Shown here piece by piece: positions 960 to 17,050 of a DNA stretch of 17,160 nucleotides; position 1 is the first letter of the stretch; the number at the start of each line of letters is the position of its first letter. The position numbers and the translations under genes were made by a program. Source of the DNA: Spirochaetia bacterium (GTDB taxonomy: Bacteria > Spirochaetota > Spirochaetia > Treponematales > Breznakiellaceae). The stretch spans positions 1 through 17,160 of the forward strand of contig BNVB01000054.1 of the NCBI GenBank assembly GCA_025997795.1. The letters are read 5' to 3'. Under the pieces are notes generated by a model. It did not search any database, was not told the origin of the DNA, and saw only the letters and a program-made list of their open reading frames with translations.

Positions 960-2421
960 ACCCTTTGGGATTTTCAGATTTTGGTTTTGTCAATTTGTCT
1001 ATGAGACTCTTGCCTATATCAGTTTGCGCAAGTCCTTCAAGCGCTCCTGCAATACTTAAACCGCCTTTTGGAGACAGCACTTCTGATACGGATTTTAATC
1101 CGCTTATTGCGTCTCCTGCATTGGCAATAATTTTAATCTCGGCGCGTCCCAGGTTCTTTGCTTGTTCTATTCCTATATCACGGTTTGCTTTAACCTGCTC
1201 GATGGTGATGAGGTATTGTTGATAGCCTTCATTTTCACCGACTTCTTTTGCGAGAGTGGTTTGGGCAACTACAGAGGCAAGCTGACGGGCCTTTTCGGCT
1301 TCACCTTCCGCAAGACCTATTGCTTCTTTACCTTCCGCCTCTGCCTTCATCTGTGCCAATTTACCTTCTGCGGTTGCTTCCAATTTATACTTTTCAGCAT
1401 CAGCTTCTTTTGATATGGCAATTTTTGCCGCTTCCGCGGTAATTTCCCTTTGGTATTTTGCCGCGTCGGTTTCAACCCTTATTTTACTTTGTGCGGCTTC
1501 CGCCGTTAATCTGACAACCTCTTTTTGCTGTTCCGCAGTAACAATGGCAGATTGTTTGGTAATTTCTGCCGCACGTACGGTATTTACCTCTTGAACGGCC
1601 ATTTGCTTTGTGGCGGTAATCTTCATCTCTTCCTGTATAGCTTGTTCGGATTGCTGCTGCGCTATACCCACCGCCTGAGTTGATTTCGCTGTCGCCTCAC
1701 CTGATAAACGCGCAGCCTCAGCTTTAGCAACTTCTATTTCTTTGTTAGCTTCAATTTCAGCCTCTTGCGCTTTTTGATTATTTAATGCTACGACTTCCCG
1801 GGATTCTTTTTCGATCTCGGATTTACGCTTGGCCATAATATTACTGATAACAGTAGACCCTTTCGCGTCTTTAATATCCATCAATTCGATATTCTTGACC
1901 GGTATGACACCCCAATTTGCAAGTTCATCTTTTGTGTCATTAGTAAATATTTCACCATATTTACTTCGTTCACCCATAATTTCTATTAGAGGGGAATTGG
2001 CTAATATAGAACGAACCGATCCTTGAACTATACCGGTCAAATGATCCATAAGCTCTTTCATATCGGTAACGCGGGTCGCTGCTTTATCGGTGTCTTCTAT
2101 ACGGAAAAATGCTTTTACATCAACATTAAACGGCACACGATCTTTATCATATGCCTCATATTCACTTAGATCCAAATCAAAGTTCGATACCGATAATTTC
2201 CGGGAAGTGATGCCGATACCAGGCAGACATGCAGGCCAATTATAATACACATTGCCGCCAATTTTACCGGTGCCATAGGAAATAGTTTTCTTTCTATGCT
2301 GAACAATATGCACAACATCAGAGGCTACAACAACGCGGCGGGACATAATCCACAGAAGCAATACAAGAAACACCGCTCCGCCGGCAATTAATAAAATCAT
2401 AGTAAAATTAGTAAAATCCAT
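958..2421 (-). CDS. Flotillin-like SPFH/Band-7 domain protein (YqiK/FloT-type), 487 aa
   Basis: An N-terminal transmembrane helix (FTMILLIAGGAVFLVLLLWIM) is followed by an SPFH domain, a long Ala/Glu/Lys-rich coiled coil (EAEIEANKEIEVAKAEAARL... repeats) and a flotillin C-terminal region. The ORF track begins at a TTG at 2436. The better start is the ATG at 2419-2421, preceded by GAAGGAG with 6-nt spacing. Confidence 0.88.
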   Translation of the reverse strand: MDFTNFTMILLIAGGAVFLVLLLWIMSRRVVVASDVVHIVQHRKKTISYGTGKIGGNVYYNWPACLPGIGITSRKLSVSNFDLDLSEYEAYDKDRVPFNVDVKAFFRIEDTDKAATRVTDMKELMDHLTGIVQGSVRSILANSPLIEIMGERSKYGEIFTNDTKDELANWGVIPVKNIELMDIKDAKGSTVISNIMAKRKSEIEKESREVVALNNQKAQEAEIEANKEIEVAKAEAARLSGEATAKSTQAVGIAQQQSEQAIQEEMKITATKQMAVQEVNTVRAAEITKQSAIVTAEQQKEVVRLTAEAAQSKIRVETDAAKYQREITAEAAKIAISKEADAEKYKLEATAEGKLAQMKAEAEGKEAIGLAEGEAEKARQLASVVAQTTLAKEVGENEGYQQYLITIEQVKANRDIGIEQAKNLGRAEIKIIANAGDAISGLKSVSEVLSPKGGLSIAGALEGLAQTDIGKSLIDKLTKPKSENPKG

Positions 2422-2507
2422 AATTTGCTCCTTCAAAAATCACCAAATCCCTGTTTCTCAAATACAAGCTGCCATGGCCCAGCTTCCTGACTTGGGCTGG
2501 TAAAATT

Positions 2508-2795
2508 ATGGCACTGATAAAATCAGTATGTCAAGGGGTCGCCAAAGGCAGCCTGTTCCAGGACATTAAAATACCCTTGAAAATTATATGGGTAACTATA
2601 TAATATACTGGAAGAAAGCAACGTATTACCAATATTTTTGCTACAGCCAAAGGCAAAAAAGCCGTTGATGGAATTATCGCTGACAATAAAAAGCTGGCAA
2701 AAGAAGTATCTGCCGCTCTTTGTGCGGAAGATCAAATCGTACTTATCGAATTATTGGAACGTCTGTTTGTCTCTCTGGAAAAAACAAATGATTAA
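2508..2795 (+). pseudogene. Decayed MarR/winged-helix-like regulator remnant, interrupted by an in-frame TAA at 2601-2603
   Basis: Frame 3 reads MALIKSVCQGVAKGSLFQDIKIPLKIIWVTI*YTGRKQRITNIFATAKGKKAVDGIIADNKKLAKEVSAALCAEDQIVLIELLERLFVSLEKTND*. The segment after the stop resembles the MarR wing and C-terminal dimerisation helix (DRR-x-LTxKG...L...L). The whole ORF is too short for MarR, it carries an internal stop, and it sits directly upstream of a MATE exporter, which is the usual position of a MarR partner. Confidence 0.3.
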
Positions 2796-4292: not shown

Positions 4293-4565
4293 TTATGCAT
4301 TTGCCCTATTATTATACTTCTTGGCATATAGATCCAATACCTCATTTATCATTGTTTGGTATTTCACCTTGTTTTTTTCTGCATATTTTTTAAAAAAATC
4401 AACACTGGTACTATTTAAAGTAATAGTGATTTTTACCTTAGGTTCTCTTTTTATGAGTTGTTCAGGCGGTGGCAAAAAGTCCGCTATTATTTCACCTTCC
4501 ATAATATTTTTTGATATGGTTTTAGGTGCATTAACGTACCTTGTTTTTTTGTTCATATTTTTCAT
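4293..4565 (-). CDS. brnA: BrnA-family antitoxin (type II TA), about 90 aa
   Basis: The location immediately downstream of and overlapping a BrnT gene supports the call. The C-terminus (KVKITITLNSTSVDFFKKYAEKNKVKYQTMINEVL) has the size and fold class of BrnA, a CopG/RHH-like family. The start was chosen at the ATG at 4563-4565 because of a strong Shine-Dalgarno sequence (GGAGGGAAGG) 4 nt upstream on the minus strand. The 105-aa ORF from 4610 would overlap brnT by 80 nt. Confidence 0.65.
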   Translation of the reverse strand: MKNMNKKTRYVNAPKTISKNIMEGEIIADFLPPPEQLIKREPKVKITITLNSTSVDFFKKYAEKNKVKYQTMINEVLDLYAKKYNNRANA

Positions 4566-4809
4566 ATCCTTCCCTCCAGTATCCCGCACCAAATATGCGG
4601 ATATTTTCATTTCTCATAGTAAATCTTACTGTTACTATGCCATTTCCATCATTTCCTATACAAAAAAATCTTTCCTCTTTTTTTGAATGTTTTTTATCTT
4701 TTATTATCACACGGTTTTTATCAAAAAATGCTCCTTGTACCGTTTCAAATGAGACATGGTGTTTCTCTATATTATCCAGATTCTTTTCTTCATCCCATTC
4801 AAAGGTCAT
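4531..4809 (-). CDS. brnT: BrnT-family toxin (DUF497 ribonuclease toxin), 92 aa
   Basis: The N-terminus MTFEWDEEKNLDNIEKHHVSFETVQGAFFD matches the BrnT signature (F-x-WD-x-x-K-x-x-N-x-x-KH-G/x-VSFEEA). The C-terminus RIFGAGYWRE is the typical RIIS-A-R motif region. The gene is followed by an antitoxin gene that overlaps it by 35 nt. Confidence 0.8.
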   Translation of the reverse strand: MTFEWDEEKNLDNIEKHHVSFETVQGAFFDKNRVIIKDKKHSKKEERFFCIGNDGNGIVTVRFTMRNENIRIFGAGYWREGYEKYEQKNKVR

Positions 4810-6233: not shown

Positions 6234-9074
6234 TTATGATGTTCCGCTGTCTGATAGAACTTCGCCATCCGCCGGAACTTCTGCCTGCTCAGCGGCTGCT
6301 TCCGGGCTAGTACGTTTGTTCCGTTTTTTCTTGATATTTTTCTTCGCCCACTTATTAAGCAGCGCCCGGAGGCCGTCATCGGTAAGTTTAAGGCTTTTGC
6401 CGCAATCGGGGCAGACAAAACGGTCCGATTCGTCCAGGTAGTCTTTACGGCAGCCAACACAGTACGTTTTACCGCAGCTGGGGCAGGTTCCGGCGGGCAT
6501 ATCGTCCGGCGGTATGGCATACAGCCGCAGGTTCGCTGCGGGGGCGGCGTTTCGTTCCACCTTCCATTCCCTGTTACATGAAGCGCAGGAAATGGTTCTA
6601 AACAACGCTTCGTTCATCCATGCTTCCAGATCGGAACGGCCTTTGGCGGTTTCTTCGCTTAAATTCAGATCAGAGAGTTGATCGAGGATCATTTTTACTT
6701 CGTCCCACTGGCCCACAAAAGCTTTGGTCCAGCCAAGCTGCAGAAGCGACGGGACATGATTGGGATCGATTTTGAGCGCCGCTTTGACGGCGGCTTCGGC
6801 CCGTTTGTATTCGCCTTTTTTTACCGCCACAAAAGCGATAAGCTCCAGCATATCGGGGTTCAGATCCGGGGGAAAATCGCGGCTGCCGGAACCGGCGGTA
6901 AGCGCATCGTCGGCTTCACCATAACGGTTCATCTCTATAAGGCAGGATCCCCGGTTATAGCGGTATAACATGTTAAGCGGCGCAGCGGCCATAGCCCGGC
7001 GGTAGAGGACATCGGCTTCTTCAAAGCGGCGGGAGCGGACCAAAAGATTACCTGCACAGTTTGCCAAAAGGCCCTCGGGGTCTTCTTCCGGCCGCGATTC
7101 AAGGATCGAAAGGGCCTTGTCTTCCATTCCTTTTAAGTAGAACGAAACCGCCTGGTTAACCCGTACAGCGGGAATGTCTCCCAAAATTGCCGCCGCTTCT
7201 TCAAGACAGCCGGCGGCCAGATCTACTTGACCTTTGCTTAGGGCCGCATGGGCGGCAAGGTTACGAATCCAGCCATAGGTTTGCGGATCTTCTTTTTTAT
7301 CGAATGCCATGGCCGCTTCCAGGTCTGCGGCAAATGCCGGATCATCCGGGTTTTGATAAATAAGAAAACGGTTTTCTGCCAGGCGGAAACGGAAGAGCGG
7401 ATAATCCGGCGCGTACTTGACGGCCTTTTCCAGCAGCGGCAGGGCTTCGTGCCGTTTGCCTTCCCGGACCAGCAATAAGCCCTGCAAAAAATAAATTGCC
7501 GGATCCCGGGCAAAATGTCCGGCCCTACGGATCTGTTCAGCCCGGTCCAGTTGTTCACCGGCGGTTTTCCAGTCCTCTATGCCAAAGGCCCATTTACCGG
7601 TAAGGGCACAGGCCTCCCAGTTATCGCTGCCCAAAAGGCGGAATTTGGGAATCAAAAGCCCCAGTTCCGCATAGAGGTTATCTGCCAAAAAGACACGGCC
7701 CGCCTTGAGGTACCATTTAAGGGCTTCTGCGCTTTGGTTAAGCAGTTCCCGGGCAACGGCGGTATTTTTTGCGGTGATGCCGCTTGTTTCGTCCAGGGCA
7801 AAAGCACGGTCGTAAGCATGGACGGCCTTTTGATAATCCCCGGCATTAAAGTGTGCGTGGCCCAAGAGGTTGTAGAGCGCCGCCGGATCGGCAAAAAGAC
7901 CGGGAGCTTCACCTTCTTTGTCTGCCCATTGGATTAAATCGCCATAGTTTCCCCTGGCATAAAACAGAGCGGCCTTCATATTGTTAAGTTCCGGAAGAAG
8001 TTCCCCCCTTAGCTCGAGGGCTTCTTCCACATAACCCGCCGCTTCGTCCAACTGTTCCAGGGCCATGGCAAGCTTGGAACCCAGGAGCAGTTCTTTTTCC
8101 GTTTTAAAGTGGACATCGGCATTTTCGCTCTGTATCGCCGCCAGTATCACCGCGTCTTCCGCTGTGGCCAGTTCCCGGGAAAGGGCGGCGGCGGCGGATT
8201 CCCTTCCTTCCCAGGCTTTGTGCAGCTGTACCAGTGCGGGATTTACCTGACCCAGGGCAGTAAAGGTTTCCGCCAGCCGTACCCGGTTATCCGGCGGAGC
8301 GCTTAGTTCCAGGGCTTCGTAACAGGCCGCCGTTTCATCAGTCCGGGAATCCAGTTCCAGGGAAAGAAGCGAAGCCAGGGCAGTGAATTCACTCTTTGCA
8401 CCGGGATCGCTGTTGTAAGGAGTGCCGGGGTTATTTTCCCCGCCGACAGCTTCGTAAGATGCGGCAGTAAAGGCAATACGCCCTGCCGGAATAGAGGCAT
8501 CGTTCCAGCTGCCCACCCACTGTCCGTTGATCAACAGTACAAAGCGGCTGCCCCAGGCGGCCAGTTCCAGATCAAAAATGACGGGTTCCCCTGATACCCG
8601 GATACCCGGCGCTTCGGTCCAGCCTGCCAGGGCCAGGGGCACGCCGTTCCGTACCAGATCCAGCCGGAAATAAGCGCGGTTTGACACCAACGCTATATAG
8701 TAGGTCCGCTCGTCCACCATACGAAAGATAAAACCCGCCGCGGCATAAGCGCCCCGGGGATCAAGGCAGATCCGTCCGCTTAGGTGCAAATCCTCGTAGC
8801 GGTAGATCATATCTTCTGCCCAGGCGATACAGTTGGTTTTTTTTACCCCCAGGCAAAGGGCGCCATCGTCCAGATAGGCACGATACAAATTTTCTGATGT
8901 AATAGAAAAACGGACAAGGGGCGGTTTTCCCGGCTTGTCAGGCCGGGAAAAATCGGCCTTCCATTGTTCCTTAACAATTGTATCCGGATCAATTTTCTGG
9001 GGGGTGGATAATCCACGGCCAAAGAGCTTTTTCAAAAAACCGAGCATATAGACAGTGTAACCCAAAAATACCAT
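6234..9074 (-). CDS. Large TPR-repeat protein with an N-terminal lectin/LamG-like (DUF1080-type) domain and a C-terminal double zinc ribbon plus polybasic tail, about 946 aa
   Basis: The ORF is long, clean and GC-rich. Residues about 60-200 (counted from Met at 9074) follow a jelly-roll pattern typical of the DUF1080/ConA-like fold (YYIALVSNRAYFRLDLVRNG...VLLINGQWVGSWNDASIPAGRIAFTA). The middle of the protein holds many TPR-like helices, with repeated A/L/Y/G patterns such as AALFYARGNYGDLIQWA and NLLGHAHFNAGDYQKAVHAYDRAFALD. The C-terminus has four CxxC pairs (CASC...CPSC..CVGC...CPDC) followed by KKNIKKKRNKR. The start is uncertain: the ORF track extends to 9524, but that low-complexity extension overlaps the divergent gene. 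The candidate starts are Met at 9074 or at 9047. Neither has a Shine-Dalgarno sequence. Confidence 0.65.
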   Translation of the reverse strand: MVFLGYTVYMLGFLKKLFGRGLSTPQKIDPDTIVKEQWKADFSRPDKPGKPPLVRFSITSENLYRAYLDDGALCLGVKKTNCIAWAEDMIYRYEDLHLSGRICLDPRGAYAAAGFIFRMVDERTYYIALVSNRAYFRLDLVRNGVPLALAGWTEAPGIRVSGEPVIFDLELAAWGSRFVLLINGQWVGSWNDASIPAGRIAFTAASYEAVGGENNPGTPYNSDPGAKSEFTALASLLSLELDSRTDETAACYEALELSAPPDNRVRLAETFTALGQVNPALVQLHKAWEGRESAAAALSRELATAEDAVILAAIQSENADVHFKTEKELLLGSKLAMALEQLDEAAGYVEEALELRGELLPELNNMKAALFYARGNYGDLIQWADKEGEAPGLFADPAALYNLLGHAHFNAGDYQKAVHAYDRAFALDETSGITAKNTAVARELLNQSAEALKWYLKAGRVFLADNLYAELGLLIPKFRLLGSDNWEACALTGKWAFGIEDWKTAGEQLDRAEQIRRAGHFARDPAIYFLQGLLLVREGKRHEALPLLEKAVKYAPDYPLFRFRLAENRFLIYQNPDDPAFAADLEAAMAFDKKEDPQTYGWIRNLAAHAALSKGQVDLAAGCLEEAAAILGDIPAVRVNQAVSFYLKGMEDKALSILESRPEEDPEGLLANCAGNLLVRSRRFEEADVLYRRAMAAAPLNMLYRYNRGSCLIEMNRYGEADDALTAGSGSRDFPPDLNPDMLELIAFVAVKKGEYKRAEAAVKAALKIDPNHVPSLLQLGWTKAFVGQWDEVKMILDQLSDLNLSEETAKGRSDLEAWMNEALFRTISCASCNREWKVERNAAPAANLRLYAIPPDDMPAGTCPSCGKTYCVGCRKDYLDESDRFVCPDCGKSLKLTDDGLRALLNKWAKKNIKKKRNKRTSPEAAAEQAEVPADGEVLSDSGTS

Positions 9075-9090
9075 ATAAGTCGAGGGAAGT

Positions 9091-10464
9091 ATGGGCAAAG
9101 AGACAATAATCAAGCGGATCCGGCAGGGTCTGGCGGCATTCATTCCAAAACCCGCGGGGAATGCCGGCAGTATAACGGGAACCCGGCTGGGCAAATTCTT
9201 TAGCAAGGCGCGTAGTATCTCTGCCGACAAGGTATTATGGATTTGGGCGCTCCTCATGGTTGCCGGGTTCTTTCTTTTTAGGCTCTTGAGCGGGAACCTT
9301 CCGGGAATGGCAACGACGCTGGTTTTTGCCCAGTATTGGGAAAACCAACTGGAAAGCCAGACCCTTACAAAGCTGGCTGCCGAATTTGAGGAACAGAATC
9401 CGGGAATCGTCATTAAACTGGAAACGATGAGCTGGGATGATATCCGTTTATCCCTGGAAGGAAAGGAAAAACCGGGTGACGATTCCGGCCGCCGTTCTTC
9501 GCAGCCGCCGGATATTTTTAGCATTGATCCCTACGGACTTTATGCCATAACTCCGTACCTGACAGCGGGCGGGGAAGAAAGCAATGTGCTGGCGCTTATT
9601 TCCTTTATCAATCCGCTTTTCTATAATATTGATCTGCTCCAGGCCGCAGGTTTTGACCGGCCGCCAAAAAATCAGACTGAATTACTTTCCTATGTACAGC
9701 GGATAAACCAGACCGCTGGGGCCGGGCAGACCGGATCCGTTTACGGCGCTGGTATCGCCCTTGGCGGCGGGGATCCTCGGCTGTCCTCTAAAGAGGAACC
9801 TCACAATGTAAGCCGCCACCTTCTTTCCTGGATTTGGTCCGCCGCGGGTAATTCCGAAACCGGCAGTTTTAACTTTACTACACCGGAGGTGGTAACGGCG
9901 CTGAACTTTCTTAATCAGCTTAAACAGTACCTGTATCCCAATCCTTTTGCCCTTACCCAAACAGAACTGCTCCGGGCCTTTGGCGAAGGCCGTGTGGGTA
10001 TGATGATAGGATCCTCGGCAGACATACGGGAATTAAAAACCAAAGGTGTCAATTTTGGCATCACCACTATTCCCGGTCCTGAATCGTACACAAAACGTCC
10101 GGTATTTCCCCTTACTGTTTGGTATGCGGGAATTAACGGTAAGAGCGAGTATCAGGAGGCGGCCCGGAAATTCCTTGACTTTCTGCGGGAACGGGCGGGG
10201 AACCTTGCCGCCGCCGCTTATGCGGTTCCCGGCAACGGCCGGCGCAGCCGGGATATGTCCAAAAACGATCTGTTTTATGCCAAGGCCTTTGATATGTACG
10301 AAGCGGGAGAAATGGCCCGGGAATTGTACGATAAACCCGGCGTAACAGAACTGAACAGCATTATCCGGCGGGAAGTGGAGTTGATGTTTAACGGAACTAA
10401 AACTCCCCAGCAATGTGCCGAAGCTATACAACAGGACTGGGAAGAAGTCCGGCTGTCCTCTTAG
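9091..10464 (+). CDS. ABC transporter substrate-binding protein (extracellular solute-binding family 1, sugar-type), with an N-terminal cytoplasmic segment and a single transmembrane anchor
   Basis: A GAGGGAAG site lies 1 nt before the ATG at 9091. The segment KVLWIWALLMVAGFFLFRLLSG is a hydrophobic anchor. The mature part carries the family-1 solute-binding-protein pattern (QYWENQ...LAAEFEEQNPGIVIKLE; YNIDLLQAAGFDRPPKNQTELLSYVQRI; a C-terminal region ending DWEEV). No permease or ATPase gene is adjacent. Confidence 0.7.
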   Translation: MGKETIIKRIRQGLAAFIPKPAGNAGSITGTRLGKFFSKARSISADKVLWIWALLMVAGFFLFRLLSGNLPGMATTLVFAQYWENQLESQTLTKLAAEFEEQNPGIVIKLETMSWDDIRLSLEGKEKPGDDSGRRSSQPPDIFSIDPYGLYAITPYLTAGGEESNVLALISFINPLFYNIDLLQAAGFDRPPKNQTELLSYVQRINQTAGAGQTGSVYGAGIALGGGDPRLSSKEEPHNVSRHLLSWIWSAAGNSETGSFNFTTPEVVTALNFLNQLKQYLYPNPFALTQTELLRAFGEGRVGMMIGSSADIRELKTKGVNFGITTIPGPESYTKRPVFPLTVWYAGINGKSEYQEAARKFLDFLRERAGNLAAAAYAVPGNGRRSRDMSKNDLFYAKAFDMYEAGEMARELYDKPGVTELNSIIRREVELMFNGTKTPQQCAEAIQQDWEEVRLSS

Positions 10465-13413: not shown

Positions 13414-14864
13414 AACGGCGGGCCATGTTCCGGCTCCTTACGCTGCTTGTTTCGCTCGTTGCCCTTTCCATGGCCGCGCCCCTCCTCTTGGCTTTGTGCC
13501 TTGGTGAAATTGCCATGGCAAAGGCCTTTGGCCTTACCATGACAGCGGCGCTGATTTTTTCCGCGCCGGTGCTTATCGCCACCCGGTCCCAGCCCATACG
13601 TTTTACCGCCTCCGATGGTTTTCTCCTGGTGTTTCTTGCCTGGGTCGGCGCCTGCCTTTTGGGCGCTGTTCCCTATTATGTATCGCAGTATATTCCGGAT
13701 TTAACAAATGCCGTGTATGAAAGCGTGTCGGGCTTTACCACCACCGGTTCTTCTATTATCACCGACCTTAACGTTATGCCCCGGTCGCTGATCTTTTGGC
13801 GGGCAGAAACTCACTGGCTGGGGGGCATGGGAATGGTGGTACTTACCGTGGCCCTGCTTCCTCTTTTGGGAGTCGGCGGTTTCCAGCTTCTTAAAGCGGA
13901 AACCCCCGGACCCGGCAAAGAACGGATAACCCCAAAAATTACCGAAACGGCAAAGCTGCTGTGGCTTATGTATATTATCCTTACTGCGGTAGAAGCGCTG
14001 TTCCTTTTTCTGGCGGGAATGAATGTTTTTGATGCGGTAATCCACGCATTTTCCACCATAGCCACCGGCGGTTTTAGTTCCCGGAACGAAAGCATCGCCT
14101 ACTATCAATCGCCCTCCATAGAATGGATCATCACGATTTTTATGATCATTGCGGGTTTTAATTTTTCACTTCTTTTTAGGATCATCCAGCGGAAGTTCCG
14201 GGAAGTGTACTACAACAGCGAAGCCCGGGCCTATATGTTGATCATCCTTGCCGCCGGAATCCTAACGGCCCTTTCCCTTAGTGCAAGCGGTTCCGCCGAT
14301 GCCCCCGACACAGAAACCACCCTTAGGCACAGTTTTTTTTATACTGCCAGCATTCTTACCACTACGGGATTTACTGCGGCGGGACACAAGCTGTGGCCCG
14401 CCCTGGCCCAGGGGATACTTTTTCTTCTTATGTGGATAGGCGGCTGTTCGGGGTCCACCGCCGGGGGTATCAAGGTAGTGCGCCATGTGGTGCTTTTTAA
14501 ACAAATGAAAAATGAAATGCGAAAAATCATTTTTCCCCGGGGTGTTTTTTCCGTCCGGCTTAACAATAAAGTTGGCCGGAAAGATGTGGTCTACGGCGTA
14601 TCGGGATTTATTTTTCTCTACCTTATTCTAATTGCACTGGGGGCCCTGGTTACCGCCAGCTCGGGCCTGGATTTTTATTCTTCCTTTAGCGTTTCACTTA
14701 TCAGCATTGGCAACGTAGGCCTGGGACTGGGGCAGATAGGATCACCGGCGGTTTTTTTGGCCCTTCCGGGTTATGTAAAGTGGTTTCTTTCCTTCCTTAT
14801 GATAGCTGGACGGCTGGAACTGTGGACAGCGCTGGTTTTTTTAACCAGGGATTATTGGCGGTAA
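13410..14864 (+). CDS. trkH: Trk potassium uptake system membrane subunit TrkH
   Basis: Selectivity-filter-like glycine motifs recur at the ends of the re-entrant loops (SGFTTTGSSI, TGGFSSRNES, TTTGFTAAG, IGNVGLGLGQ). The protein is polytopic. The start codon overlaps the trkA stop (ATGA at 13410-13413). Confidence 0.9.
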   Translation: MKRRAMFRLLTLLVSLVALSMAAPLLLALCLGEIAMAKAFGLTMTAALIFSAPVLIATRSQPIRFTASDGFLLVFLAWVGACLLGAVPYYVSQYIPDLTNAVYESVSGFTTTGSSIITDLNVMPRSLIFWRAETHWLGGMGMVVLTVALLPLLGVGGFQLLKAETPGPGKERITPKITETAKLLWLMYIILTAVEALFLFLAGMNVFDAVIHAFSTIATGGFSSRNESIAYYQSPSIEWIITIFMIIAGFNFSLLFRIIQRKFREVYYNSEARAYMLIILAAGILTALSLSASGSADAPDTETTLRHSFFYTASILTTTGFTAAGHKLWPALAQGILFLLMWIGGCSGSTAGGIKVVRHVVLFKQMKNEMRKIIFPRGVFSVRLNNKVGRKDVVYGVSGFIFLYLILIALGALVTASSGLDFYSSFSVSLISIGNVGLGLGQIGSPAVFLALPGYVKWFLSFLMIAGRLELWTALVFLTRDYWR

Positions 14865-14900
14865 GGGAAAGGCAATGGGGGCTTAGCTTTTCTCTTGACA
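14824..14900. repeat. Direct repeat copy 1: the last 12 codons of trkH, its stop and a TTGACA -35 element (core 14829-14884 plus 12 extra bp plus TTGACA)
   Basis: The sequence GGACAGCGCTGGTTTTTTTAACCAGGGATTATTGGCGGTAAGGGAAAGGCAATGGGGGCTT[agcttttctctt]GACA matches 15625-15690. The differences are three substitutions, one 1-nt indel and one 12-nt indel. Confidence 0.9.
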
Positions 14901-14924
14901 TTTTTGTCCTATTTAAGGTATCAT
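14895..14924 (+). promoter_or_regulatory. Sigma70-like promoter (TTGACA, 18 nt, TATCAT) driving the inserted two-gene cassette
   Basis: TTGACA at 14895-14900 is followed by an 18-nt spacer and TATCAT at 14919-14924. This is about 30 nt upstream of the orf57 ATG at 14956, which has a G-rich ribosome-binding site (GGGGGTAGATAG). Confidence 0.5.
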
Positions 14925-14955
14925 ATAAAGTATCACCATTGCCGGGGGTAGATAG

Positions 14956-15129
14956 ATGGACTTTATTATAACTCAAGAGGATTATAACGAATATCTCTCT
15001 AAAAAGAGCGCCATCAACAATGAACGGATACGCCCGGATGATCAGAGCTTTTTTGATGCGCTTATGACGGTAGACATGAAAAACGACCCGGACGGAAAAC
15101 GGGCCATAGAGATTATTCGGGAATTATAA
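14956..15129 (+). CDS. Hypothetical small acidic protein (57 aa), first gene of the inserted cassette
   Basis: The ORF is absent from the supplied track, which appears to have a 60-aa cut-off. The translation is MDFIITQEDYNEYLSKKSAINNERIRPDDQSFFDALMTVDMKNDPDGKRAIEIIREL*. Its net charge is about -5. The TAA stop at 15127-15129 lies 1 nt before the next ATG, so the two genes are translationally coupled. The region is AT-rich, at about 35% GC. Confidence 0.5.
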   Translation: MDFIITQEDYNEYLSKKSAINNERIRPDDQSFFDALMTVDMKNDPDGKRAIEIIREL

Positions 15130-15130
15130 A

Positions 15131-15607
15131 ATGGCAAATACCCCTGAAGAATTCCCGGTATTTACCGATCTTGATATGCGGCAGATTACGATTCTTTCTT
15201 CCCGTTTCCGTCTTTACCTAAAAGACTTTGAGATTAATAACGGACTATCCGGCATCATTGCGTCTCCCCCTGTTATAGCAGAAATATGCGAACGCATTGA
15301 AAAAAGACGGATATATTTTCATATCTTCTATAATTGCAAAATGGGCGAGTTAAACGAGGGATCTCTTATGTGTTTCTGGATATTGAAATTAATGCCGTTT
15401 TCACATCTGTCTATTCCCTTGAACGAACTCAACGCAAAAATAGCGTTATATTTGCTCAATAACGTGCTGATATATCATGCAAAGAAGAAAGGCAAAAAAG
15501 TAAATATTTCCAGCGAGTTATACGAGCGTCTTTATTATTCATTCCGCTTTAGAGATATAAGCAAAGAAGCAATTATGGCATTGTCTGAAAGTCTTATAAT
15601 CCAATGA
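15131..15607 (+). CDS. Hypothetical protein (158 aa), second gene of the inserted cassette, with no recognisable family
   Basis: The ORF is clean and starts 1 nt after orf57. The protein is net basic with a Lys-rich patch (HAKKKGKKVN), mostly alpha-helical by composition, and has no transmembrane segment. It contains an R-x4-H motif (RRIYFHIFY) reminiscent of HEPN, but this is very weak evidence. Confidence 0.55.
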   Translation: MANTPEEFPVFTDLDMRQITILSSRFRLYLKDFEINNGLSGIIASPPVIAEICERIEKRRIYFHIFYNCKMGELNEGSLMCFWILKLMPFSHLSIPLNELNAKIALYLLNNVLIYHAKKKGKKVNISSELYERLYYSFRFRDISKEAIMALSESLIIQ

Positions 15608-15624
15608 GCCTCCCCGCCCTAAAG

Positions 15625-15690
15625 GGACGGCGCTGGTTTTTTTAACCAGAGATTATTGGCGGTAAGGGAAAAACAATTGGGGGCTTGACA
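15625..15690. repeat. Direct repeat copy 2 (trkH 3'-end coding sequence plus TTGACA), downstream of the cassette
   Basis: GGACGGCGCTGGTTTTTTTAACCAGAGATTATTGGCGGTAAGGGAAAAACAATTGGGGGCTTGACA still encodes ...TALVFLTRDYWR*. The only change inside the coding part is a synonymous AGG to AGA. The upstream frame is closed by a TAA at 15597. Confidence 0.9.
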
Positions 15691-15713
15691 AATCTGTTAA
15701 TAGTAAGTATACT
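15685..15713 (+). promoter_or_regulatory. Sigma70-like promoter (TTGACA, 17 nt, TATACT) for the SRPBCC-marR operon
   Basis: TTGACA at 15685-15690 is followed by a 17-nt spacer and TATACT at 15708-15713. An AGGAG site at 15734-15738 sits 9 nt before the ATG at 15748. Confidence 0.5.
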
Positions 15714-15747
15714 TATTATAATACTACTTATTAAAGGAGATGTATTT

Positions 15748-16161
15748 ATGGAACTGCAATTTACACTTGAAGTGAACGCCCCTGCGGAGAAAATTTGGCC
15801 TTATTACGCCGATCCCGCAAAACGTTATGTCTGGGAAGATGATTTAGAAGACATAACGTTCGATGGTGAGGTCAAGACTGGCACAACGGGCAGTATGAAA
15901 CTGAAAGAAATGCCCAATATGCCGTTTACCTTAACAGAAGTTATCCCAAACGCTTCTTATTGCGACAGGACGGATGTTCCGGGAATGGGGAGCCTCTATT
16001 TTGGGCATAAAATCCTGCGGGAAAACAGCAAGACCTATATCCGGCACAGCGTCCGGCTGGAAAAAGAGAACGCATGCGAAGATGACCTTGGCTTTCTTAG
16101 CGGCGTGTTCTCCGATGTACCCGGTGCGGCTTTGAAAATCAAAAGGGAGGTTGAGAAATAG
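15748..16161 (+). CDS. SRPBCC (START/Bet v1/polyketide-cyclase-like) ligand-binding domain protein, 137 aa
   Basis: The N-terminus MELQFTLEVNAPAEKIWPYYADPAKRYVWEDDLEDITFDG is the typical SRPBCC opening (a beta strand followed by helix 1). The protein is about 140 aa long. The start was chosen at the internal ATG, which has an AGGAG ribosome-binding site. The hydrophobic N-terminal extension in the ORF track is a read-through of the promoter region. Confidence 0.75.
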   Translation: MELQFTLEVNAPAEKIWPYYADPAKRYVWEDDLEDITFDGEVKTGTTGSMKLKEMPNMPFTLTEVIPNASYCDRTDVPGMGSLYFGHKILRENSKTYIRHSVRLEKENACEDDLGFLSGVFSDVPGAALKIKREVEK

Positions 16162-16762: not shown

Positions 16763-17050
16763 ATGAGCGAATTGCGGTTTATTTGGGACGAAAACAAGAA
16801 TCTTGACAACATCAAAAAGCATGGGGTGAGCTTTGAAGAAGCCTCCGCCGCTTGTTTAGACCCGAATTGTGTTAGAATTTTTGATGAAACTCATAGTATA
16901 AATGAGGATAGATGGATTTTGCTTGGCAGGGTACGGGAAACCGTACTGTTCGTGGTTGAAACCGAGCAGGATACTGATACAATCAGAATTATATCAGCCC
17001 GGCCAGCCACCAAAAGAGAGAAGGAACGGTATTATGGCAATGGTTACTAA
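16763..17050 (+). CDS. brnT: BrnT-family toxin (DUF497), second divergent paralog in the window
   Basis: The N-terminus is MSELRFIWDENKNLDNIKKHGVSFEEASAACLDP. The C-terminal motif is IRIISARPATKREKERY. The gene is followed by an overlapping antitoxin gene. Confidence 0.85.
   Translation: MSELRFIWDENKNLDNIKKHGVSFEEASAACLDPNCVRIFDETHSINEDRWILLGRVRETVLFVVETEQDTDTIRIISARPATKREKERYYGNGY

Follow-up and report, generated by a model that had tools for sequence, protein, structure and literature searches.

Among the described systems closest to the locus treated here are toxin-antitoxin (TA) systems built on the Fic fold. Class I Fic toxins are controlled by three-helix antitoxins of about 60 amino acids (aa) that carry the motif (S/T)xxxE(G/N) at the end of helix 1 (PMC8401265). 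Fic-fold proteins whose motifs are degenerate or missing, such as C. fetus Fic2, Bartonella BepC and Bep8, and AvrB, retain the fold and a structural 'PF' anchor but lose the canonical catalytic residues (PMC8401265), and C. fetus Fic2 is still toxic with its degenerate motif (PMC5651007). With regard to genomic setting, lone TA operons have been described from intergenic spots between housekeeping genes, at sites that vary among relatives, with no mobility gene and by an integration mechanism that is unknown (PMC7167474; PMC3184786). Here, we analyzed a stretch of 17,160 nucleotides (nt) from a Spirochaetia bacterium of the family Breznakiellaceae (positions 1 to 17,160 of contig BNVB01000054.1, assembly GCA_025997795.1; hereafter the window), and in it two small genes on the forward strand, orf57 (14956..15129, 57 aa, ATG start; hereafter A) and orf158 (15131..15607, 158 aa, ATG start; hereafter B). 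An earlier inspection of the DNA letters, referred to below as the sequence-only reading, had proposed them as a candidate novel TA or defense-type module. We favor, with a probability of roughly 0.55, the reading that the pair is an addiction-type TA cassette in which the effector B has a Doc fold and a non-canonical site, and A serves as a small direct inhibitor. Most likely it represents an undescribed variant of the Doc/Fic-type TA module and not a categorically new system.

A single base lies between the TAA stop of orf57 and the ATG of orf158. The putative antitoxin A is acidic (net charge -5, from 13 D/E and 8 K/R), and the putative toxin B is basic (+3, from 17 D/E and 20 K/R) with a KKKGKK patch at residues 118-123, so that coordinates and residue counts bear out the initial description of an acidic protein followed after 1 nt by a basic one with a Lys-rich patch. 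Across the family the median charges are -5 for A, which is acidic nearly everywhere, and +2 for the mildly basic B. Profile searches with orf158 in 1.84 billion representative sequences yielded 449 clusters (about 450 at 50% identity); at 90% identity its relatives form 546 clusters, nearly all of 156–165 aa, all of them named 'hypothetical' and none with a Pfam domain, and the longer members show no informative domain fusions. The 53 genome loci belong to Treponema and other Spirochaetia, Fibrobacterota (Fibrimonadaceae, Chitinispirillales), Planctomycetota, Cloacimonadota, Holosporales, Oscillospiraceae, and Lachnospiraceae. Metagenome-assembled genomes (MAGs) from termite guts make up the majority of these loci, and some genomes harbor several copies.

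The two genes are conserved as a pair. Searches with hidden Markov models (HMMs) in all reading frames identified an A homolog directly upstream of a full-length B at about 40 non-redundant loci in Spirochaetota, Fibrobacterota, Planctomycetota, Cloacimonadota, Bacillota, and Holosporales, and essentially every full-length B homolog of the recognizable subfamilies has such a neighbor. Chitinispirillales copies of 35% identity also keep a partner with the pattern N-x-x-x-R...FWDF, which falls below the HMM threshold. At most paired loci the genes lie -14 to +9 nt apart or share an ATGA overlap; a few gaps are wider (e.g., 160 nt in locus L038). Pairwise identities of A and B are correlated across 35 loci (r = 0.72), a value that none of 2000 permutations reached. 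Together with the conserved adjacency, this co-divergence answers in the affirmative the question, raised by the sequence-only reading, of whether homologs of the two genes co-occur as neighbors in other genomes. A evolves faster, with a mean identity of 34% as compared to 46% for B, and the ratio of non-synonymous to synonymous substitution rates (dN/dS, omega) of A exceeds that of B in four of the six closely related module pairs with estimates for both. An antitoxin that evolves faster than its toxin is the usual pattern. In closely related module pairs dN/dS ranges from 0.02 to 0.14 for A and from 0.03 to 0.18 for B; therefore, both open reading frames (ORFs) are real genes under purifying selection.

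Neither protein can be assigned to a known family by its sequence, as had been stated at the outset. No meaningful match was obtained for orf158, orf57, or 68 and 25 members of their families in Pfam, NCBIfam, PADLOC, PHROGs, or sequence and profile searches of the PDB. The predicted structure of B (AlphaFold2, from an alignment of 39 sequences) is informative: it is all-helical and confident (predicted local distance difference test, pLDDT, 92; predicted template modeling score, pTM, 0.86), with helices at residues 16-29, 46-67, 73-87, 97-119, 128-140, and 145-154 that make up an alpha-helical Fic core fold. Foldseek searches with this model returned Doc first (3kh2_C, probability 1.00, TM-score 0.61), followed by VbhT, for which the match was weak (E = 0.7), Coxiella Fic2, C. 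elegans Fic-1, FICD, and AvrB; a search of viral folds in BFVD gave no match. The Doc/Fic fold predicted for B can be regarded as solid, but membership in the Fic/Doc family cannot.

Conservation within the B family centers on the region in which Doc and Fic proteins carry their active site. The family signature reads R-[VI]-E-K-R-R-x-Y-F ... E-x-N-E ... W-I-x-K-L-x-P-F ... N-x-K ... R-D-[IL]-S-K-E-A, with polar invariants at R59, Y62, E73, (E76), W83, K86, N101, (D142), S144, (K145), and E146. It includes a basic helix (R55-x-E-K-R-R-x-Y62) and an acidic/polar C-terminal patch (R141-D-x-S-K-E146), and the most conserved residues, K86-L-x-P89-F90 ... N101-x-K103, flank the loop that carries the catalytic motif in Doc and Fic. 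By helix order the motif-equivalent loop comprises residues 88-103 (x-P-F ... N-x-K), in which P89-F90 and N101/K103 are conserved and position 88, that of the catalytic histidine, is variable. An alternative register, H64-I-F-Y-N, is not conserved either: of the wider family, about 50% have H64 and 78% have H67, and both residues are missing from several members. Since the fold matches but the histidine position is variable, we regard B as a Doc/Fic-fold protein without the canonical active site.

For A, the structure model consists of three short helices (residues 7-17, 27-37, and 48-56) whose packing is unreliable (pLDDT 69, pTM 0.34). Small antitoxins that acquire their fold upon binding the partner typically give moderate models of this kind. 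Across 25 diverse homologs, N22 and R26 are the sole invariant residues; they form an N-x-x-x-R-[P/G] element just past helix 1, in which E23 is not conserved, and are followed by a hydrophobic helix, F-[FW]-D-[AW]-[ML]. Profile searches found no DNA-binding domain of the HTH, RHH, AbrB, or Phd type in A and no match to PF02604, and because of this lack of a DNA-binding domain, classical Phd-type autoregulation is improbable. The sequence-only reading had called the layout that of a canonical type II TA system. The conserved pairing of two small genes that are adjacent, co-oriented, and translationally coupled agrees with this description, but 'canonical' is too strong a word for a module whose small protein has no DNA-binding domain to act on an operator and that shows no conserved operator-like palindrome upstream of A in 10 loci. 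Autoregulation of this kind is, however, not universal among type II systems, and FicA-type antitoxins also lack a DNA-binding domain.

These features can be combined into a tentative model. A would be produced first and its translation coupled to that of B, from an operon that probably dispenses with classical Phd-style autoregulation. As the cognate inhibitor, a small, acidic, faster-evolving, and largely induced-fit three-helix protein, A may dock on B and insert its invariant N22/R26 element into the conserved pocket of B, similar to the way in which the C-terminus of Phd complements Doc or VbhA/FicA block class I Fic toxins. B in turn would be an effector on a six-helix Doc/Fic fold without the catalytic histidine. 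As this residue is absent, B might either modify a conserved cellular target via a non-canonical active site or bind and block its target. Doc acts on EF-Tu and FicT on topoisomerases, for which reason translation or DNA topology appear to be the most plausible targets of B. On this reading, the unit consisting of its own promoter, A, and B (~0.7-0.8 kb) spreads horizontally among termite-gut bacteria of several phyla, lands in intergenic spots at the 3' ends of genes and tRNAs, often beside other TA genes, and leaves behind a target duplication of 38-79 nt at about one in five loci.

In the window, the insertion itself can be delimited. That the locus sits on an insertion had already been suggested, and a 61-62-nt direct repeat of the trkH end on both sides of the pair, together with a drop in GC content from 0.49-0.57 in trkH to 0.37-0.41 in the pair, supports and sharpens this view. 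The left repeat copy (14824..14884, + strand) is the functional 3' end of trkH, comprising its last 13 codons and the stop plus 20 nt downstream, so that the working gene terminates in TALVFLTRDYWR. The right copy (15625..15686, + strand) is an orphan, non-functional duplicate that still reads TALVFLTRDYWR up to the stop. In the alignment of the junctions the copies differ by five substitutions and one indel; two of the substitutions fall in the coding part and both are synonymous, so the orphan encodes the same 13 residues. An exact-pattern search found these two copies only in the window, and none of 200 shuffled sequences yielded any. The inserted unit (14885..15685, + strand) is 801 bp long, corresponding to one repeat period, is low in GC, and contains a promoter, orf57, orf158, and the orphan repeat copy. 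The promoter, detected by a consensus scan, is sigma-70-like (14895..14924, + strand; TTGACA-18-TATCAT, 11 of 12 matches), and a GGGGG ribosome-binding site precedes orf57 at 14944-14948 (+ strand). The locus was acquired horizontally and lies among other TA genes. A true empty site for this insertion was not obtained, as metagenome scans with the repeat core or a codon-degenerate trkH end gave no matches, and the closest TrkH is 78% identical to the window copy. The two nearest TrkH relatives (L059 and L060; 75-77% identity, shared SBP-EPSPS-TrkA-TrkH synteny) lie on contigs that end 150-320 nt past trkH. One of the two contigs has an unrelated pflA-like gene after trkH, and the other, L060 (5410-5520), shows a 20-nt duplication exactly at the trkH stop, with CTTATTGGCGATAGCCAATC occurring twice at a spacing of 25 nt. 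The trkH 3' end looks like a recurrent hotspot of recombination or of assembly breaks.

Similar footprints are found elsewhere in the family. Nucleotide homology between unrelated genomes is confined to a unit of 0.7-0.8 kb that begins 17-100 nt 5' of A and ends within about 10 nt past the B stop (89.8% identity over 743 nt for loci L014/L016, 92% over 791 nt for L025/L026, 85.6% over 700 nt for L010/L012, and 81% over 722 nt for L020/L023). As this homology starts upstream of A, the promoter is part of the cassette. Flanking direct repeats of 38-79 nt, strong and specific to the respective locus, were detected at 6 of 28 testable loci, as compared to 4 of 240 control positions of matched size within these loci (p = 1.2e-4), and short flanking repeats at the remaining loci did not exceed chance. 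The repeats of different loci share no sequence. In the cultured Treponema primitia ZAS-10 (L028), an islet of 956 bp lies between perfectly repeated stretches of 38 nt that correspond to the tRNA-Gly(CCC) 3' end. Its neighbors within 6 kb are SbcC, an acylphosphatase, an aminoacyl-tRNA synthetase, an MNT/HEPN pair, and an ATPase, with no recombinase among them. Attachment-site-like (attL/attR-like) duplications of a gene or tRNA 3' end are present both in the window (trkH, 61 nt) and in ZAS-10 (38 nt), but the unit holds only A and B and encodes no integrase or recombinase of its own. A rule by which hairpins mark the insertion targets was considered and rejected: the left repeat copy of the window contains the hairpin CTGGTT-TTTTT-AACCAG (DNA fold z = -2.8) and the 79-nt repeat of L014 one with a 12-bp stem, and hairpin potential is significant at these two loci only. 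An integron gene cassette or transposon was likewise dismissed, in view of missing attC sites and terminal inverted repeats, homology that ends within 10 nt of the B stop, and the absence of an integrase from the window.

Other TA pairs are frequent neighbors of the module. At L014, the genes immediately upstream of the module (1996-2601, minus strand) code for a HigB-like 'addiction module killer' with its HTH antidote. The loci L062 (4001-8174) and L063 (4001-6546) have in common their left context and a remnant of A with an internally deleted B and differ on their right sides, with a ParE/Phd plus PIN/Phd array in one locus as opposed to a Phage_integrase gene in the other, which makes this a variable TA island beside the module. 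The contig of L029 starts with a 67-nt inverted copy (1-67) of an internal B-gene segment that is 97-100% identical to L025/L026, either a rearrangement or an assembly artefact.

Insertion may proceed by a trans-acting integrase on att-like sites, by Campbell-type recombination of a circle excised at the repeats, or by repair of a widely staggered break. With respect to mobility alone, a different history would be that the islet is all that is left of a larger island with an integrase, which had integrated at the 3' end of trkH or a tRNA and from which everything else was deleted, and that the pair itself is not the mobile unit. The duplication of a tRNA 3' end in ZAS-10 and of a gene 3' end in the window is the classic attL/attR signature of tyrosine integrases, both differences between the window copies that fall into trkH codons are synonymous, as would be expected had one copy come from the functional trkH of another strain, and the integrase gene of L063 lies 1.4 kb from the A/deltaB remnant. 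However, this history requires independent reductions to exactly promoter, A, and B at six loci with different targets, there is no integrase, transposase, or recombinase domain in the window and no integrase within 6 kb in ZAS-10, and homology between genomes stops at the cassette edges, which argues that the pair moves alone. We therefore consider a reduced island a rather doubtful explanation.

As to the function of the pair, genomes with multiple copies, homology limited to the cassette, low GC content, TA neighbors, and decayed copies constitute the behavior of a selfish element and speak for an addiction module. A series of results weighs against this interpretation. The Pfam Fic model (PF02661) and the NCBIfam Doc models matched neither the window protein nor 68 diverse family members, a PDB profile search with the B family recovered no Fic/Doc chain, and hhalign of the B family with P1 Doc gave a probability of 1.3% for a weak match of 19 columns in helix 2 only. 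The Fic/Doc motif, be it HPFx(D/E)GN(G/K)RxxR or HxFx(D/N)(A/G)NKR, is absent from B in either register and none of the histidines is invariant across the family, which makes a kinase or AMPylase mechanism like that of Doc unlikely as such for B. On the side of A, the confidence of the structure model is moderate, hhalign with VbhA yielded a probability of 0.14%, no Phd model of Pfam was matched, and the operator-like palindrome is missing. Moreover, toxicity of B, its neutralization through direct binding by A, its target, and the mode of insertion are inferred. Finally, decay of the module, which includes copies with intact A and an internally deleted B, is not clearly asymmetric: a broken B beside an intact A occurs at four loci and a truncated A beside an intact B at two, although loci of the latter kind should be scarce if B were a strong toxin. 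This last point is not decisive.

Several of these observations would also be expected if the pair were a non-toxic accessory module, with B a catalytically dead pseudo-enzyme of Fic/Doc fold that serves as an adaptor or regulator like BepC and A its chaperone or co-factor, transferred as a small, neutral or mildly beneficial unit in the termite gut without being addictive. BepC provides a precedent, as it has a non-canonical FIC motif and no detected enzymatic activity and nevertheless binds GEF-H1 (PMC8401265). The lack of an invariant histidine and of a Fic/Doc motif throughout the B family and of an autoregulatory operator fits this view, as do the two loci that keep an intact B beside a truncated A, which a potent toxin should not tolerate. 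However, both truncated A copies retain the invariant N-x-x-x-R core, and B, with its 158 aa, shows very strong conservation at about 15 charged or polar positions and omega values down to 0.03. Obligate pairing, translational coupling, multi-copy spread across phyla, surrounding TA genes, and decay to an orphan A are in better agreement with addiction, and we regard the accessory module as unlikely.

Still less probable is a two-gene anti-phage system acting by abortive infection, in which A holds B inactive until infection releases it; mechanistically this overlaps with the TA model. A small, mobile two-gene architecture with wide horizontal transfer and the adjacency to genes of TA or defense type (BrnT/A, MNT/HEPN, HigBA, ParE, PIN) would suit such a role. 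PADLOC, however, gave no match for either protein at E<=10, and tblastn found no family member in annotated phages and plasmids. In IMG/VR only two contigs carry the pair, L065 (1248-1991) and L066, the latter being the same contig as the Cloacimonadota MAG locus L036. In L065 nothing clearly viral adjoins the pair, so that its classification as viral may reflect a predicted provirus or be false. The suggestion that orf158 is a minimal HEPN RNase using R59/R60 and H64 is practically untenable: the R-x4-H string (RRIYFH) exists as R59...H64, with the histidine at 64 and not at 65 as originally numbered, and is invariant in the close subfamily, but H64 occurs in only about half of the wider family, some members of which have no histidine there at all, the fold of B is not the four-helix HEPN fold, and no HEPN protein was found among the structural matches or by Pfam, which refutes the motif as a family-level feature.

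Several aspects of the pair deserve attention. B belongs to a protein family of considerable size for which no library tried gave an annotation and which uses a Doc/Fic scaffold without the catalytic histidine, so that it may stand either for a new chemistry carried out by an old fold or for a toxin that acts by binding alone. Its partner family is new as well and has an invariant N-x-x-x-R where Fic antitoxins carry the inhibitory S/T-x-x-x-E, which looks like a charge swap. The cassette also offers a clean natural example of a TA-like unit that, in a single ecosystem, crosses between phyla on its own. A 2020 review described the movement and integration of TA systems as unelucidated (PMC7167474), and the long target duplications, including that of the cultured T. 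primitia ZAS-10, make this movement experimentally approachable. A far bolder idea, to which we attach very little likelihood, is that promoter, A, and B constitute a minimal mobile element that, by itself or via recruited host or helper activity, generates the 38-79-nt target duplications at gene and tRNA 3' ends without a conventional transposase or integrase, the fold of B having taken on a new activity. If true, such an integrase-free element would explain in concrete terms the movement of chromosomal TA modules, a question of long standing.

In the window, the pair is preceded by genes for an SBP, EPSP synthase, TrkA, and TrkH and followed by an SRPBCC-like gene, a MarR regulator, and BrnT. 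A strong sigma-70-like promoter follows each repeat copy, one serving the pair and the other, directly after the right copy, the downstream SRPBCC-MarR operon (15685..15713, + strand; TTGACA-17-TATACT, 11 of 12 matches in the consensus scan). The latter promoter-like site overlaps the TTG start of the 158-aa SRPBCC-like ORF (region 15685-15750); because of this overlap, the ATG at 15748 (137 aa) is the likelier start. The two BrnT/BrnA systems mentioned in the sequence-only reading as a TA-rich background are both real. The first (4293-4809, minus strand) consists of BrnT (92 aa) overlapping a BrnA-like gene (105 aa), and the second is a BrnT near the right end of the window (16763-17050), any downstream partner of which would lie past the edge. 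Further upstream, the 457-aa SBP ORF (9091-10464, + strand) overlaps the end of the ORF of a 1096-aa TPR protein (6234-9524, - strand) by ~430 nt (9091-9524), and the true SBP start is probably located further downstream than 9091. No RNA component was identified by Rfam.

Compared with Phd-Doc of phage P1, in which Doc is a Fic-fold kinase of EF-Tu, B has no detectable sequence similarity to the toxin and no conserved counterpart of the Doc motif HxFx(D/N)(A/G)NKR with its catalytic His66, and it is longer by ~30 residues, being extended at its N-terminus and having a larger loop where Doc carries the motif. A, in turn, is not a member of the Phd/YefM family and has no DNA-binding domain. Similar in architecture are the class I FicT/FicA systems (VbhT/VbhA, Ye_FicTA, EcFicT/A), which combine a Fic-fold effector with a separate antitoxin of ~60 aa that has no DNA-binding domain and consists of three short helices, as predicted for A. 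The N22-x-x-x-R26-[P/G] element of A nearly coincides in position with (S/T)xxxE(G/N) at residues 20-25 of VbhA, the sequence of which was verified, and agrees with it in the i/i+4 spacing. However, the inhibitory glutamate of VbhA is replaced by an invariant arginine, so that the motif as defined for these antitoxins is not present in A, and B lacks the HPFx(D/E)GNGRxxR of FicT including the arginine that this glutamate would contact. The likeness of A to VbhA is therefore a lead and not evidence of membership. With the degenerate Fic proteins, among which AvrB is one of its Foldseek matches, B shares the fold, but Fic2 still needs its catalytic histidine, and those proteins can be recognized by sequence whereas B cannot. 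Finally, unlike the lone intergenic TA operons described previously (PMC7167474; PMC3184786), some insertions of the present cassette are accompanied by target duplications of 38-79 nt, one of them at a tRNA 3' end, and the cassette crosses the boundaries between phyla.

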